From Candidatus Heimdallarchaeota archaeon B3_Heim (GTDB taxonomy: Archaea > Asgardarchaeota > Heimdallarchaeia > Hodarchaeales > Hodarchaeaceae): 32,000 nt of DNA. The DNA lies in assembly GCA_003144275.1 (NCBI GenBank), contig NJBF01000005.1:60001-92000 (forward strand). The letters are read 5' to 3'. The notes under the pieces were generated by a model that made no database searches, had not been told where the DNA came from, and was given only the letters and a program-made list of their open reading frames with translations. Each line of letters starts with the position of its first letter. Positions within the stretch are counted from its first letter, which is position 1. This document shows positions 2,608 through 29,128 of this stretch, piece after piece. Made by a program: the position numbers and the translations under genes.

Positions 2608-6501
<3,894 letters not shown>

Positions 6502-6503
6502 AT

Positions 6504-6806
6504 ATGAAACCAGATATAGAAAAAGCTATAAATATGGCAATGAGTACAGGAAAAGTAAGAATGGGTTATAATGATGTGATAAAAAGCGTATTAAATGGGA
6601 AAGTAAAAGCTACGATTGTTTCAAGCAATTTACCAGGCAATATTGCAGAAGAATTGAAAAGAAGCTGTGAGCTTTCAAAAATACCAATAATTTCATATGA
6701 AAAGAGTGGAAAAGAGTTGGGAGCCGTATGTGGACGTCCACACAAAGTATCAACAATCGCCATCTTAGATCCAGGAAATTCAAAGATTCTTGAATATATT
6801 GAATAG
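6504..6806 (+). CDS. rpl30e: 50S ribosomal protein L30e (eL30)
   Basis: MSTGKVRMGYN...ELGAVCGRPHKVSTIAILDPGNSKIL. Canonical position after rpoA2. ATG 6504 is preferred over the overlapping ORF start at 6456. Confidence 0.96.
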   Translation: MKPDIEKAINMAMSTGKVRMGYNDVIKSVLNGKVKATIVSSNLPGNIAEELKRSCELSKIPIISYEKSGKELGAVCGRPHKVSTIAILDPGNSKILEYIE

Positions 6807-6817
6807 GAAGTTCACTT

Positions 6818-7258
6818 TTGTCTAAGATACGAATGTCGCAAGATGAATTGAGCTTAATATCGACATTAGAAGGAATAACAGGGGCTCTAGCTATCGACTG
6901 TATTTGGGAAAAAGAAGATAACAGAGTTATCTTTATTGTTCGTCGAAATGACACAGGAAAAGTTATTGGAAGGGGAGGAACTACAATTCAAAGACTTCGT
7001 GAGTATTTCAAGAAGAATATTGAAGTTGTGGAATATTCAGAAAGAATCGAAAAATTTGTAACAAACACATTGGCACCTGCAAAAACAAAAAACGTTGAAA
7101 TTATTGAAAAATCAGGTCGGAAAACCGTGATCGTTACAGTGATTCAAAGAGAAAAAGGAAAAGCGATTGGGAAAAATGGTAGAAATATACAGCGGTCACG
7201 TTTGCTACTAAAAAGACATTTTGGGGTAAATAATGTAATTATTCAATGTCCGAATTGA
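6818..7258 (+). CDS. nusA: Archaeal NusA-like transcription elongation factor (two KH domains)
   Basis: GKVIGRGG and GKAIGKNGRNI KH motifs. Canonical position between rpl30e and rps12. TTG start. Confidence 0.95.
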   Translation: MSKIRMSQDELSLISTLEGITGALAIDCIWEKEDNRVIFIVRRNDTGKVIGRGGTTIQRLREYFKKNIEVVEYSERIEKFVTNTLAPAKTKNVEIIEKSGRKTVIVTVIQREKGKAIGKNGRNIQRSRLLLKRHFGVNNVIIQCPN

Positions 7259-7396
7259 TCTAACAACGTGAAGGTAAAGCCAAACTGTTCAAAAACCTAA
7301 CAAAAAACAAAGTTAAACACGTTTATTGCGACTTTAAACAATATATCTGAGAGAAAACAAAACTCACATTCATCTACAAAGATTAGGCGAGAAAAC

Positions 7397-7840
7397 ATGA
7401 CTGGATTGAAATCACCACGGGGCGAATTCGCAGCAAATAAGCTGGTCAAGAAACGGAAAAAATTCCGATGGAAGAGTACAACATATAAGAGAAAAGTGCT
7501 CCGTTTGAAGGAAAAATATGACCCTCTTGAAGGTTCTCCGCAAGCTCGTGGGATTGTGATTGAAAAAGTTGGTATTGAATCAAAACAACCAAATTCAGCT
7601 ATCAGAAAATGTGTACGAGTTCAACTTATCAAAAATGGAAAACAAGTTACAGCTTTTGTACCTGGAGATGGGGGATTACTATTTATTGATGAACATGATG
7701 AAATTTCAATCGAAGGGATCGGTGGAGGAAAAGGAGGAGCCGTAGGAGATCTTCCAGGAGTACGATATAGAGTAGTCCATGTCAACGGAGTAAGTCTAAA
7801 AGCTATGCTCTCGGGAAGAAAAGAAAAACCAATGCGGTAG
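7397..7840 (+). CDS. rps12: 30S ribosomal protein S12 (uS12)
   Basis: [38 protein letters not shown]. Confidence 0.99.
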
Positions 7841-24384: not shown

Positions 24385-25683
24385 TTATACTTCCTTTAGA
24401 TTCATTCGAACAAGAAAAGCGGTTGATACAAACAGAATAACAACTGCAATTAATAGTCCCCATTGGGCTAAATTTGGAAGAATTGGAGAGGGAAAGGGAC
24501 TTTTTAGATAAATTCTACCCGCAAAAACTTGAATTGGGAGATAGCCAATGCGATTAGCAATGAAAATAATGTCACAGCTTCCACTACTCAATCCTTCGGT
24601 ATCAATAGTTCCAAAGAATTTGGTTGAGTTTAATGGGTCAACATTCATTATCCTTTTAGTCAGAATCGATCCCGTCCGTTCTAAGGCGATGAATATTTGA
24701 GTTTGAGATAAGCTCTGATTTTGAGAATTCACTAAGGTAACGTTTCCGCTTATTGTCACTCCCAAATTAACAGATTGTCCTTCTAGATCAGTCCAAGGAT
24801 TATAAAAACTCATAATTCCTGTGTTACGGCCAAGCCATCTAATCGAATTTATAATTAAATCAGAATTATCAATAAAAACACTTGTTGAATTATCTAGTGG
24901 CTCAATATACGTATCGTTAAACATATCAACGGAGCCAATTGTAAATATTCGACCACCATTCTCGAACTCCAAGGTAGAGGCAAAAGTATTATTTTCTGAC
25001 GGTTCTTCTGTAGAATCCTTCAATAGGAGAGGATTAAAGTAAGTAATTGAGGGAGAAACATATGATTCCAATTTTGATGTATTGAAAGATATACCAAGTG
25101 CATTAGGAAGATTTACTTGTGAAATGTTTTCCGTAATAGGTGTAATAGGAGTAGTGAAATTACGTGCTAAATATTCATAGGGTATAACAATATCTCTGTT
25201 ATCTCTCACTTCAGCTGGTATAAGAGAGCTAGAGAGATTAAATGAAAGTCCAAATCTATCTAGGATATCATTGGATTCCACAGTAGTCTGATTCATATAA
25301 CCTGTAGCAACAAGCATTGAGTTTCCATCTTTAATGAATTCCTCGACATCCTGAATTTCTGAATCAGTATAAGATGAAGTTGGAGCCAAGACGAGGAGGA
25401 CATCGATTGATGTTAGAGCTTCCTCATTTACATTCTCACTGAGAAACTGAACATCTTGAGTTGGACTAAATATTCCATTTAGTAATGTTGTAAGGTTACT
25501 TAGCTGGCTTTCAGAGATATTATTGTTATGTGCCATATCTATACCGATCACGATATCTGATTCGAGAATTGGGGCTCCCGCACCCATGACAATCATTGAG
25601 GCTGAGTTGTTATCCTCTATTGTAACCGCAGTTAGAAATATGACAAACATAAATAAGACGTAAGTATTTTTCAGTTTTTTCAA
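24385..25683 (-). CDS. OST48/Wbp1 (DDOST)-like oligosaccharyltransferase subunit
   Basis: Signal peptide, GATase-like domain (LLVLAP...EFIKDGNSMLVA), GRIFTIGSVDMFND, NSDLIINSIRWL, ANRIGY, C-terminal TM. 432 aa. TTG start with AGAGGA upstream. Confidence 0.72.
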   Translation of the reverse strand: MKKLKNTYVLFMFVIFLTAVTIEDNNSASMIVMGAGAPILESDIVIGIDMAHNNNISESQLSNLTTLLNGIFSPTQDVQFLSENVNEEALTSIDVLLVLAPTSSYTDSEIQDVEEFIKDGNSMLVATGYMNQTTVESNDILDRFGLSFNLSSSLIPAEVRDNRDIVIPYEYLARNFTTPITPITENISQVNLPNALGISFNTSKLESYVSPSITYFNPLLLKDSTEEPSENNTFASTLEFENGGRIFTIGSVDMFNDTYIEPLDNSTSVFIDNSDLIINSIRWLGRNTGIMSFYNPWTDLEGQSVNLGVTISGNVTLVNSQNQSLSQTQIFIALERTGSILTKRIMNVDPLNSTKFFGTIDTEGLSSGSCDIIFIANRIGYLPIQVFAGRIYLKSPFPSPILPNLAQWGLLIAVVILFVSTAFLVRMNLKEV

Positions 25684-25860: not shown

Positions 25861-26403
25861 TTATGGAACTACAGTTCGATAGACCAAGAATTCTCCAGCT
25901 GTAGGGCTATTTCTTTTGATTTTTAATACATCGCCAACTTTTGCGCCTAAAAGTTGAACTGCAGGATCTTCAGCTGAAATTTTGGGAAGCTGATATGTAA
26001 ATATTGAATATTTTTTCTCTAATTCTTGAACTTCCGATTCAGTAGCAAATTCATGAACTGGAACGAGGTAATGTTTAAAAAGATTGAAGAACGGAAATTT
26101 TATCGAAAAAGTTTCGATATCTGCTGCTTTGGCTTCTCTTTTTGCATAATGAGTGTATTTATTTAATGCAAGCAGCAAGGCGTAATTATACCCCTTCTCC
26201 TCAATTTCTTCCTTATAATCCCTTAATTCACGAACACCAACGACTTCTTTTTCTGGAATTCGCACTATAATCGTCTGGCCTTCAGAATTTTTGCCAAAAA
26301 TATCATGGTATTCTTCATTCTCAACTTCAGAAGTTACTTCAAAACCTCTAGTTAGTAGAATGGACTTTGCACCATCAATAACTCGATCTTTACGCCCAGT
26401 CAA
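25861..26403 (-). CDS. rpoH: RNA polymerase subunit H/Rpo5 with N-terminal Rpb5 jaw-like domain (180 aa)
   Basis: C-terminal HYLVPVH...LPKISAEDPAVQLLGAKVGDVLKIKRNSPTAG...YRTV is canonical Rpo5. The extra ~100-aa N-terminus resembles the eukaryotic Rpb5 N-domain. TTG start with GAGGT. Confidence 0.95.
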   Translation of the reverse strand: MTGRKDRVIDGAKSILLTRGFEVTSEVENEEYHDIFGKNSEGQTIIVRIPEKEVVGVRELRDYKEEIEEKGYNYALLLALNKYTHYAKREAKAADIETFSIKFPFFNLFKHYLVPVHEFATESEVQELEKKYSIFTYQLPKISAEDPAVQLLGAKVGDVLKIKRNSPTAGEFLVYRTVVP

Positions 26404-26437
26404 ATGTATTAAACCTCTAAAAACAATTCAAGGGGAC

Positions 26438-26445
26438 TTTTTAAA
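26438..26445 (-). promoter_or_regulatory. Possible TATA box for rpoH
   Basis: Minus-strand TTTAAAAA about 35 nt upstream of the rpoH start. Confidence 0.3.
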
Positions 26446-26502: not shown

Positions 26503-28473
26503 TCACACATCTTCAATTATATAACTAGCATCACTACGATATCTTAACAAAGGACAAAAACTGTTACATCTCATACAGTGAATACATTTTGAAGTATCGA
26601 CCTTAATCTTCCCATTTCTAAGAAATAACGCATCTTCCTCACAATTATAAATACAAACACCGCATCCATCACAATATGTAACACGAAATATAGTTTTTAT
26701 AAAATCTATTGCTTTAGCATCTATAGAAGCCTTGAAATTATCTCTAACAATGACTGATCCATCCCGAAAAACATCGGTTCTGTTTCCTCTGGAATCAGTG
26801 CTATGGAGGAGATCCAATTCTTCATTAAGTTGTGTTTCTCCAACAATTGGAAGCAATTGGTTAATTAATTCCAATTCAAGCAATTGGTTCGCTGAAACAT
26901 AGCTGGAAAAACCTCCCAAAACACAAGGAGAAGGAGAACGAGTCATAGAAAACTGGAGTTGTGAGCTAGGCTCTGACGAGGAATTCTTAATTTTGTATTT
27001 AATATTATTTCTTTGAAGGAGTTTCAAAATTTTCGCTGGAAGAATCTTCCATCTCCAGAGACCCCAGGATATGTATTGTTTTGGAAAATTATTTACTGAT
27101 TTAATACTTGATAATCTTTGGGTTAATTGTTCAAGCAGAATAGGATGAGTCTCTTCCATTATAGAAAAATCAGCAAGCGAGGCAGCTGGACAGACCCAAC
27201 AGCCAATTCTGATAAAACCCTTGGTATATAGTGGATTGAGAAGCCCCATTAAACCCCGAGCTTCAATATACAAATAAACCTCAAAAGCACTCCAATTGTT
27301 AATCGGGGAAGCGGAGACTTGTTTAGGGATCCAAGGATTTTGAGATACACGGGGTTCTTGGGATCGCCCAAACGACTCATACCGACGTTTTCCCAAAAAA
27401 GTTAAGACTTGATCATCATCGGGAAAGTTTTTTTCTAATATAGAATTTATCGGAGCAAGTTTGGACGATTTACAACACCAGCGTGAGTTTCTAGTCGGAG
27501 GACCAAACTGTTCAAAACGCTCCCAAAAATCCCAAGATTCATTTTCATCAACCAGTACTTTTCGTCCATAAGTTTTCGAAATTAATTTAACATTCTCGAG
27601 TGTTTCGGGATATTCTAATCCTGTATCTGCAAAAATTATCTCATAGGGAACATCAGATTGGGCAATAAGGTTTAGAGTCGCAAGAGAATCTTTACCTCCC
27701 GAATAGGCCACGACGATGTTGTTGAAATCCTGAGCTGTCTTTTCAATGAAATTTATCGCTTCGTCTTCAATGTATACTAATGATTGACGATTGGCTTTAA
27801 TCATTTTCTCCCATGAAGAATGCGATATTGGCTCAACCATAAGTGATTTTTTTCTATATTTAGTCTTAATGGCAACACCACGAGGCGAGTTAAGCATAGT
27901 TTCTCGATCCATCTTTGCTAAACCGACGGCAATGACCTCGTATTGACAAACAATTATTATAGGATCATTTAAATTAATATTTCCATGCACTCCTAATATA
28001 CCTGGTGCAAGGACTGAAGCTCCTTTTATAATTGGTTCTTTTGCTCCGATATCTACCTCGACCCAATTGGATGCGCCACTATGCCAAAGTTTTTGGGCCA
28101 GAGCAAGTTTAGGTACCAGTTCAAAGTTCTCTTTAAGTGGATTAAATCGAAGTAATCCGATCACTCCCCCAAGATAATAAATTTCATCCATTCTATCAAC
28201 ATAAGGCACTTTGTTTAGAAGAAGAATCTGATTCTTAATCATATTTTGAAAAATCTTGGCCGATTCTACTCCATATTGGTCTTCCACCGCTTTAATTAAT
28301 TGTGACAAATCCCCCTCGAATGCAGGACGAATATCTCCTGGAGGTGTGACCTGAATCTTACGCCCAGACTTTCCACAGCTACTACACTGTTTACGTATCA
28401 AAGGAACCTGGCATATATCGCACCAATGAAGTCGTACCTTACCCAAGAATGGAATTTTCAAAAATATCTCCAC
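26503..28473 (-). CDS. Zn-ribbon/PUA/PAPS-reductase-like/4Fe-4S multidomain protein
   Basis: WCDICQ...CSSCG, PUA domain (GASVLAPGI), PP-loop VAYSGGKDS, WCCKSSK, RIGCWVCP, C-terminal CDGCGVCIYNC and CIHCMRCNSFCP. GTG start. Confidence 0.88.
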   Translation of the reverse strand: MEIFLKIPFLGKVRLHWCDICQVPLIRKQCSSCGKSGRKIQVTPPGDIRPAFEGDLSQLIKAVEDQYGVESAKIFQNMIKNQILLLNKVPYVDRMDEIYYLGGVIGLLRFNPLKENFELVPKLALAQKLWHSGASNWVEVDIGAKEPIIKGASVLAPGILGVHGNINLNDPIIIVCQYEVIAVGLAKMDRETMLNSPRGVAIKTKYRKKSLMVEPISHSSWEKMIKANRQSLVYIEDEAINFIEKTAQDFNNIVVAYSGGKDSLATLNLIAQSDVPYEIIFADTGLEYPETLENVKLISKTYGRKVLVDENESWDFWERFEQFGPPTRNSRWCCKSSKLAPINSILEKNFPDDDQVLTFLGKRRYESFGRSQEPRVSQNPWIPKQVSASPINNWSAFEVYLYIEARGLMGLLNPLYTKGFIRIGCWVCPAASLADFSIMEETHPILLEQLTQRLSSIKSVNNFPKQYISWGLWRWKILPAKILKLLQRNNIKYKIKNSSSEPSSQLQFSMTRSPSPCVLGGFSSYVSANQLLELELINQLLPIVGETQLNEELDLLHSTDSRGNRTDVFRDGSVIVRDNFKASIDAKAIDFIKTIFRVTYCDGCGVCIYNCEEDALFLRNGKIKVDTSKCIHCMRCNSFCPLLRYRSDASYIIEDV

Positions 28474-28687: not shown

Positions 28688-29128
28688 ATGGCTAGTCCTT
28701 TTTGTGAGATCTGTGGTACTTTGATAACAACTCGAAGAATCGGATCAGAAAGAAAATTAATGTATTGGTGTCCCAAATGTCAAAAAGAAATATTAGAAAG
28801 CAGAAAGGTGGACAAAGTAGCATTTCAAGAGACTACACTCATAAATCACAATGTAAAAGATAAAACACGAATATTAGAAGATGAACCTCCACCCATTCCA
28901 AAACTAATGACCCAAACTTATGAACAACGAAAAAAGAAACGATGTCGACATCCTCAGGCGATCTTTCAGGGTTTCTATCAATTTTCTAGCGGTGATGAAG
29001 CTTCACGAAAATATTGGTACTGTCCAGATTGTGGTCAGGTTTTTCGATTTTCAGGAAAAGTGATAGTAAAGAGCCATCGCAAACTAATCCACACAGAAGA
29101 AGAGGGAGAAAAGTTAGACAATAAATAA
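28688..29128 (+). CDS. Divergent TFS/RpoM (Rpb9/TFIIS-like) double Zn-ribbon protein
   Basis: N-ribbon FCEICG...WCPKC; C-ribbon RCRH...QFSSGDEA...YCPDCG keeps the DE hairpin; there is a C-terminal extension. Confidence 0.78.
   Translation: MASPFCEICGTLITTRRIGSERKLMYWCPKCQKEILESRKVDKVAFQETTLINHNVKDKTRILEDEPPPIPKLMTQTYEQRKKKRCRHPQAIFQGFYQFSSGDEASRKYWYCPDCGQVFRFSGKVIVKSHRKLIHTEEEGEKLDNK

Follow-up and report, generated by a model that had tools for sequence, protein, structure and literature searches.

A two-domain RNA polymerase subunit Rpo5 with a jaw-like N-terminal domain in a Hodarchaeales archaeon

Does an archaeal RNA polymerase (RNAP) carry a counterpart of the jaw domain of eukaryotic Rpb5? 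The question is raised by rpoH (rpo5), a gene in the 32,000-nucleotide stretch of Heimdallarchaeota DNA analysed here (the window), the product of which, RNAP subunit Rpo5 (RpoH, or H), is more than twice as long as expected. Archaeal Rpo5 has been described as corresponding to the C-terminal third of Rpb5 only and the jaw as eukaryote-specific (PMC2675907, PMC2847245, PMC3906176), in agreement with the original prediction for this locus, which gave the jaw as classically described to be absent from archaeal RNAP, and a 2012 census of PD-(D/E)XK proteins assigned the jaw domain, Rpb5_N, to Eukaryota only (PMC3424549). A two-domain Rpo5 is unmentioned in recent surveys of archaeal RNAP small subunits and folds (PMC13257274, PMC13607799, PMC13539645), and no prior report of one was found in the full-text literature, the coverage of which leaves out subscription journals and most supplements. 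The subunit family is thus a known one, but its architecture here was thought to be confined to eukaryotes.

A single, two-domain subunit H

The window gene encodes 180 amino acids (aa), compared with 77-84 aa in the solved archaeal RpoH chains, which bears out the extra length first noticed at this locus. The full product passes the NCBIfam RpoH equivalog NF007129 (91.4 bits, cut-off 83) and scores 87.1 bits against PF01191, Rpb5_C (cut-off 23.5). The C-terminal domain that accounts for the latter match (Table 1) has identical coordinates in a six-frame genome search and is 55-59% identical to the RpoH chains of Thermococcus and Pyrococcus. No second Rpb5_C gene exceeded the cut-off in a six-frame search of the organism's own genome (G000, 3.95 Mb, 93.97% complete). 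Therefore, this should be the organism's only subunit H and not a paralogue beside a canonical short one, and the rival short RpoH that the original prediction had allowed for did not turn up. Homologues labelled 'Hodarchaeota' or Heimdallarchaeota, together with 21 genome loci, place the gene in the Hodarchaeales, and the nearest record is 99% identical across the N-terminal domain (N-domain). These 21 loci are the yield of one narrow N-domain alignment pattern on genome contigs and served for taxonomy and substitution rates, not for distribution. The product is accordingly predicted to be the single Rpo5 subunit of a Hodarchaeales (Heimdallarchaeia, Asgard) RNAP, and we infer its presence in that polymerase from the conserved assembly domain.

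The first 100 residues are modelled with confidence by AlphaFold2 (AF2), with a predicted local distance difference test score of 94.8 and the succession helix, three strands, helix, strand, helix, strand that makes up a PD-(D/E)XK core. Purifying selection on this domain is as strong as on the C-domain: across 20 Hodarchaeales genes the median ratio of nonsynonymous to synonymous substitution rates (dN/dS) is 0.055 for the N-domain and 0.037 for the C-domain, and dS mostly lies close to 1 or higher when the comparison is with another Hodarchaeales species. Between lineages, homologues are still 41 to 97% identical and have residues that never vary. The domain weakly matches the profile of a nuclease, Mrr_cat (PF04471, cut-off 21 bits), against which the whole protein scores 20.2 bits, just below the cut-off, and residues 1-105 alone score 22.0, just above it. 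In a three-way alignment the 'QCK' of Mrr is replaced by 'VRI' in the N-domain and by 'VFF' in plant Rpb5, the helix-1 glutamate is gone (Mrr 'FE' aligns with 'VI'), and one aspartate, D34, is what remains of the Mrr catalytic D...(Q/E)xK residues. Since the catalytic (Q/E)xK and the helix-1 glutamate are lost, the N-domain should be an inactive nuclease, retaining the fold without its catalytic residues.

Origin of the N-terminal domain

Several types of comparison showed a likeness to the Rpb5 jaw far beyond chance expectation. With phmmer, residues 44-178 are colinear with residues 70-208 of human RPB5. A profile built from the N-domain only (20 Asgard sequences) retrieved 11 distinct Rpb5 sequences and zero nucleases among 177,635 PDB sequences; its alignment to Rpb5 stays in register all the way from helix 1 through the final strand, and helix 1 and the 'RGY/F' motif fall on their equivalents in plant and yeast Rpb5. 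Both the long alignment to human RPB5 and the N-terminal parallel, which the original prediction had given, were therefore recovered. Comparison by hhalign of the N-domain with 11 Rpb5-type jaws gave a score of 98.9 (E 2e-17, 103 columns). With Foldseek the full-length model matched across both domains (E 1e-15) and superposed on Rpb5 of Pol I, II and III and of African swine fever virus over about 205 columns with template modelling (TM) scores of 0.74-0.86; the top 36 full-length matches of this predicted model had TM scores of 0.79-0.86, again over about 205 columns, and short archaeal RpoH superposed on the C-domain only. As modelled, the jaw and assembly domains have the order and mutual arrangement seen in Rpb5.

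Individual features agree as well. Exactly 11 residues separate the IExF closing strand of the N-domain from the HxLVP motif of the C-domain in 27 of 28 Asgard-type and 16 of 17 Rpb5-type proteins, the closing strand IETF is identical in plant Rpb5, and a proline follows beta-3 in both where Mrr has its lysine region. The catalytic positions lost in the N-domain are those lost in Rpb5. The N-domain, at 100 aa, is without the helical insert of the eukaryotic type, the Rpb5 N-domain being about 125-130 aa long. Likeness to Rpb5 and likeness to Mrr are not mutually exclusive, because the PD-(D/E)XK folds include Rpb5_N itself (PMC3424549), and the Mrr_cat cut-off is exceeded even by a genuine plant Rpb5. 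When Rpb5-N was compared with Mrr_cat directly, hhalign gave a score of only 46.6 over 44 columns. The Rpb5 jaws are thus nearer to the Asgard domain than to Mrr_cat, and the Asgard domain therefore bridges the two.

A maximum likelihood tree of 112 N-domains (IQ-TREE, LG+C20+F+G4, 107 columns) gathers the 18 Rpb5-type domains in one clade (support 99/92). This clade is nested in a larger one (95/98) that also contains 34 Asgard-type RpoH N-domains, that of the window protein among them. Outside the larger clade fall the Bathyarchaeia-type RpoH N-domains, stand-alone Bathyarchaeial 'restriction endonucleases' and 25 true Mrr nucleases. Descent of the N-domain and the Rpb5 jaw from one fusion event is favoured by these data, not proven, and we regard such homology as likely; the jaw part of the eukaryotic polymerase probably arose in archaea.

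Several results weigh against this conclusion. The N-domain compared with ten true Mrr_cat domains gave an hhalign E-value of 7e-17 over 91 columns, about equal to that for the Rpb5 jaws, and at the level of the fold it ties with EndoMS and AF1548. In a search of 1.84 billion representatives, its profile ranked two-domain RpoH proteins first and then Mrr_cat and Rpb5 proteins interleaved, with Mrr_cat fusions equalling or outscoring Rpb5 proteins. The Pfam model Rpb5_N (PF03871) was unmatched at E<=10, both in an hmmscan of the protein and in a six-frame genome search. The last of these is not a refutation, because PF03871 spans about the first 90 residues of eukaryotic Rpb5 (about 1-94), the eukaryote-specific insert included, and the strongest similarity to the N-domain falls after that stretch. 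The original prediction had named both Rpb5 profiles as a check: Rpb5_C matched strongly, Rpb5_N did not, and Mrr_cat matched weakly, at 22 bits. The inter-domain orientation in the AF2 model may in part reflect Rpb5 structures in the AF2 training set, and the presence and position of the N-domain in the polymerase are taken by analogy. When Rpb5-N was forced to group with the Mrr nucleases, the approximately unbiased (AU) test on the 107-column tree did not reject the placement (delta lnL 4.1, p 0.38), and so the tree alone cannot settle a single or a double origin. Finally, the Bathyarchaeial RpoH N-domains cluster with the stand-alone Bathyarchaeial 'restriction endonucleases' (91/92), which suggests that fusion or separation of such domains has occurred more than once.

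It is possible to read the equal scores against true Mrr_cat and Rpb5-N, the tie with EndoMS and AF1548, the AU result and the Bathyarchaeial grouping as signs of convergence, with archaea and the eukaryotic stem each joining a different Mrr-type domain to the RpoH N-terminus, and the archaeal domain being an analogue of the jaw, not its ancestor. The duplicated or multi-copy N-domains described below, which show the domain to be mobile around rpoH, would fit this as well. We nevertheless consider it unlikely that the fusion happened in this way, since the maximum likelihood tree puts the Rpb5 jaws within the Asgard RpoH N-domains, the hhalign alignment of Rpb5-N to the Asgard domain is far better and longer than that to Mrr_cat, the domain order, the 11-residue junction, the proline and the IETF strand are all held in common, the same catalytic positions are lost in both, and the closest archaeal relatives of eukaryotes carry the N-domain almost universally. 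As to the grouping of the N-domain, which the original prediction had made the crux, the placement of Rpb5 jaws with Asgard RpoH N-domains at 95/98, away from true Mrr nucleases, supports that prediction, with the unrejected Mrr placement as a caveat; acquisition of the jaw before eukaryogenesis is favoured and not demonstrated.

Transfer in the opposite direction, by which Asgard archaea and Bathyarchaeia would have taken a two-domain Rpb5 from eukaryotes or giant viruses and displaced a native short rpoH, is very improbable. Rpb5-type proteins, one with a weak poxvirus RNA-polymerase match, do occur in the same large clade, and the long-form gene lies apart from the rpoB operon, as could be the case for an acquired gene. 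However, the C-domain is of the archaeal type, as its identity to Thermococcales RpoH and its passing of the RpoH equivalog indicate, the N-domain is without the eukaryotic insert and is more Mrr-like in sequence than any Rpb5, the Rpb5 proteins make up a single derived clade inside which the archaea are not nested, and the long form is near-universal in the window's class and found in most sampled Asgard families. We give hardly any credence to an annotation artefact, in which translation from an internal start would produce no more than the C-terminal ~80 residues, the 100 codons before it being separate or untranslated. NCBI records in the Bathyarchaeial clusters discussed below are 72-91 aa long where others call identical loci at 182 aa, and rpoH is without a confirmed RNA or protein record: the listed sequence holders include no recorded RNA holder, and three runs of a marine-sediment study that are labelled metatranscriptomic (possibly DNA) yielded four short contigs spanning just 26140-26402. 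On the other side, the frame is single and uninterrupted and holds no Met codon able to start a short form, a Shine-Dalgarno-like motif precedes the TTG, and in close homologues of equal length an ATG (MNGRKERV...) takes the place of the TTG, which supports this start. The low dN/dS of the N-domain at a dS mostly near or above 1, the identity and invariant residues kept across lineages, and the confident fold also argue for translation of the whole frame.

The scenario to which we incline, with somewhat less confidence than we place in the homology as such, is that a dead Mrr-type domain was fused once to archaeal RpoH, at or before the Asgard ancestor and possibly in common with Bathyarchaeia, at the time when rpoH left the rpoH-rpoB-rpoA operon. 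Eukaryotes would have inherited the fusion and added the insert. Asgard RNAP would then already have had a Pol II-like lower jaw for regulator docking or for a grip on downstream DNA, and some lineages would have elaborated it into tandem paralogues and into proteins with two to three jaws.

Nuclease-fold modules related to the N-domain also occur in other proteins. The closest relatives other than RpoH (E 6e-10; P0105, P0124, P0139) are signalling proteins in which Mrr_cat is fused to TackOD1 output domains, zinc ribbons and response-regulator receivers. In P0120 (275 aa), an Asgard-type RpoH-N-like domain that nests in the Asgard RpoH-N clade is joined to an MgtE_N/FliG_M-like domain and not to Rpb5_C. 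The stand-alone Bathyarchaeial 'restriction endonucleases' (P0126, P0134, P0141, P0144, P0147 and P0201; about 180-235 aa, without Rpb5_C) are either the source of the Bathyarchaeial fusion or a copy split off from it.

Distribution and genomic context

The long form is present in most sampled Asgard families and in Bathyarchaeia. Among 301 genomes sampled from the Asgard phylum, 280 have an Rpb5_C gene and 163 an N-domain match (counted at E<=1e-10); where both are present, the N-domain lies directly upstream of Rpb5_C in one frame. In the window's own class (families f1-f7) the N-domain was found in 73 of 77 genomes, in families f9, f17 and f25 in every sampled genome, and in family f11 in 51 of 76. 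It was matched in 0 of 68 genomes of family f14 (Rpb5_C frame 87-100 aa), 0 of 4 of f8 (frame 81 aa) and 0 of 4 of f19 (frame 88 aa), and families f13 and f18 likewise gave 0 matches and have short frames of 91-125 aa. A tblastn search with the rpoH product covered residues 1, 6 or 13 to 179 in ten long-form loci and only 106-179 in three short-form loci.

Clusters named Bathyarchaeia contain a two-domain RpoH of 182-189 aa. Since Bathyarchaeia carry the long form too, it is not an Asgard-only signature; the two-domain form noted in the original prediction is confirmed. In two 90% clusters from Bathyarchaeia, those of P0125 and P0159, the proteins are 182-189 aa long when they come from JGI or Logan and 72-91 aa long in NCBI records, at least one of which is marked partial. 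Start-codon choice can thus hide the long form, given that NCBI records in the same clusters stop at 72-91 aa.

Two elaborations of the gene were observed. In many genomes of family f11 the full-length, two-domain rpoH is present as a tandem pair spaced by about 650 bp, and in a few there are three copies (L032, at G209:C111:1-2900; G263:C207, G087:C32, G134:C31, G152:C186, G046:C19 and G251:C25). These would be paralogues of an RNAP subunit in an archaeon. In family f4 of the window's class, RpoH has at least two jaw-like N-domains in one frame of 430-500 aa (L037, at G015:C63:9500-12500; P0091, P0096 and P0099, 378-481 aa). P0138 (456 aa), a protein of the Rpb5 type, has three Rpb5_N matches, one Mrr_cat and one Rpb5_C.

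The classical rpoH-rpoB-rpoA1-rpoA2 operon is dispersed in this genome (Table 1). The window gene is about 19 kb from rpo1N and rpo1C, which encode the large-subunit parts bound by Rpo5, and is on the opposite strand. The short-form rpoH genes of families f14 and f19 lie directly upstream of rpoB (L026, L028), which was recognised there by the conserved N-terminal motif of Rpo2, the Rpo2 query used in tblastn being without its first ~160 residues. No rpoB was found within 1.5-2 kb downstream in any of ten long-form loci from nine families (L029-L038).

The immediate neighbours of rpoH are a PUA/PAPS-reductase/4Fe-4S gene upstream and a membrane-protein gene. The former encodes a protein that also has zinc-ribbon-like cysteines. 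The latter has an N-terminal signal or transmembrane segment and a C-terminal transmembrane segment, and matches ABC_transp_aux and the IFT52 GIFT domain (34.7 bits, cut-off 27.2). A divergently placed gene further on encodes a protein with two zinc-ribbon-like CxxC pairs, for which no family scored above cut-off.

Table 1. Features of rpoH and of its surroundings, in window coordinates unless a contig is named.
Feature	Position	Strand	Basis or remark
rpoH/rpo5, two-domain RNA polymerase subunit Rpo5	25861..26403	-	Open reading frame and translation, read 26403 to 25861; 180 codons plus stop, TTG start
N-terminal jaw-like domain, residues 1-100, predicted catalytically dead Mrr-type PD-(D/E)XK fold	26104..26403	-	AF2, hidden Markov models, hhalign
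Junction, 11 residues SIKFPFFNLFK, from closing strand IETF to HYLVP motif	26071..26103	-	Spacing count
C-terminal assembly domain Rpb5_C/RpoH, residues 106-178	25870..26088	-	PF01191, E 6.5e-25, profile 1-73 of 73
Putative expression signals	26413..26445	-	Read from sequence; GAGGT (putative Shine-Dalgarno) at 26417-26413, about 11 nt before the TTG; further upstream, TATA-like TTTAAAAA (putative promoter element) at 26445-26438
rpo1N (A')	2608-5295	+	Pfam Rpb1 domains 1-5 together with rpo1C; genome search
rpo1C (A'')	5308-6501	+	Pfam Rpb1 domains 1-5 together with rpo1N; genome search
rpo1N-rpo1C-nusA(KH)-rpsL (S12) run	2608-7840	+	
rpoB	G000:C88:105974-107104	-	About 14 kb past the window end, ~19 kb beyond rpoH
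PUA/PAPS-reductase/4Fe-4S gene	26503-28473	-	656 aa, upstream of rpoH
Zinc-ribbon-like gene	28688-29128	+	146 aa
Membrane-protein gene	24385-25683	-	432 aa

Proposed role and comparison with known systems

The jaw of Rpb5 constitutes the lower jaw of Pol II, lies beside downstream DNA, makes few direct contacts and docks factors. Archaeal H binds A'', cross-links to DNA at +10 to +20 and is required for open-complex formation, and yeast Rpb5 can substitute for it in vitro (PMC2847245). Sulfolobus RNAP lacks the jaw and has, at the vacant locus, an open, positively charged groove that is filled by Rpo13 (PMC2675907). Considering the site of the Pol II jaw, the Sulfolobus groove and the H-DNA cross-links, we expect the N-domain in the position of the Rpb5 jaw as a docking module. 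The C-terminal assembly domain would anchor Rpo5 on Rpo1, as in all archaea. Pol II structures suggest that the N-domain would be located on the lower jaw, next to downstream DNA, where it would fill the groove that is open in the Sulfolobus enzyme and provide a non-catalytic structural or factor-docking module close to the DNA. Its slightly negative net charge (16 K+R, 20 D+E) is more in keeping with a role in docking proteins or steering DNA than with binding DNA tightly. The eukaryotic jaw would be the same domain with an insert of ~26 residues and further divergence.

The presence of a jaw-bearing Rpo5 in Hodarchaeales, as in most of the other Asgard families sampled, moves another 'eukaryotic' transcription feature into archaea and gives the jaw a concrete candidate origin, a disabled restriction-endonuclease domain. 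It becomes possible to study the role of the jaw in a system with a single polymerase and without TFIIF, and its effect on the lower-jaw rearrangement reported for Pyrococcus RNAP. Complementation of yeast rpb5 by an Asgard Rpo5 is also testable now; a chimera of yeast N-domain and Pyrococcus C-domain failed to complement (PMC3906176). An annotation problem is flagged as well, since some NCBI records call just the C-terminal ~80 aa of long-form genes.

Among known systems, Rpo13 of Sulfolobales RNAP occupies, beside Rpo5 and Rpo1, the locus that is partly filled by the Rpb5 jaw in Pol II (PMC2675907). It may be a functional analogue of the N-domain, adding DNA-proximal mass at the lower jaw, but this helix-turn-helix protein is unrelated, forms a subunit by itself and is found in Sulfolobales only. 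With Mrr_cat (PF04471) and its inactive relatives (NA-iREase1, PF22722; AF1548, 1y88; the C-domain of EndoMS/NucS, 5gkj) the N-domain has the 'VGV..R' and 'T..AK..A..IE' motifs in common; it differs in its fusion to an RNA polymerase subunit and in the tree, where the true Mrr nucleases fall on the opposite side. Canonical archaeal RpoH (NF007129; PDB 4qiw_H, 8cro_H, 7ok0_H) is 39-59% identical to the C-domain, with a root-mean-square deviation of 1.2-1.6 A. Like it, the window gene is the sole copy in its genome and its product presumably has the same Rpo1-binding role, whereas the 100 extra N-terminal residues form a separate domain and, unlike the short-form Asgard rpoH genes examined, the gene is not upstream of rpoB.

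The closest parallel is eukaryotic Rpb5/RPABC1, shared by Pol I, II and III (PF03871 + PF01191; PDB 1dzf, 5xog_E, 7vba_E), in which a PD-(D/E)XK jaw is likewise followed by the assembly domain, with a dead nuclease site, the proline after beta-3, the IExF closing strand and the 11-residue junction in common. The window protein is shorter (180 aa, compared with ~210 aa) because it is without the ~26-residue insert between helix 1/strand 1 and strand 3, so that residues 1-100 of the model align to residues 6-131 of the Rpb5 chain. Its C-domain is nearer to archaeal RpoH than to Rpb5, its N-domain still strongly resembles Mrr_cat and falls short of PF03871, and it would serve one polymerase where Rpb5 serves three.
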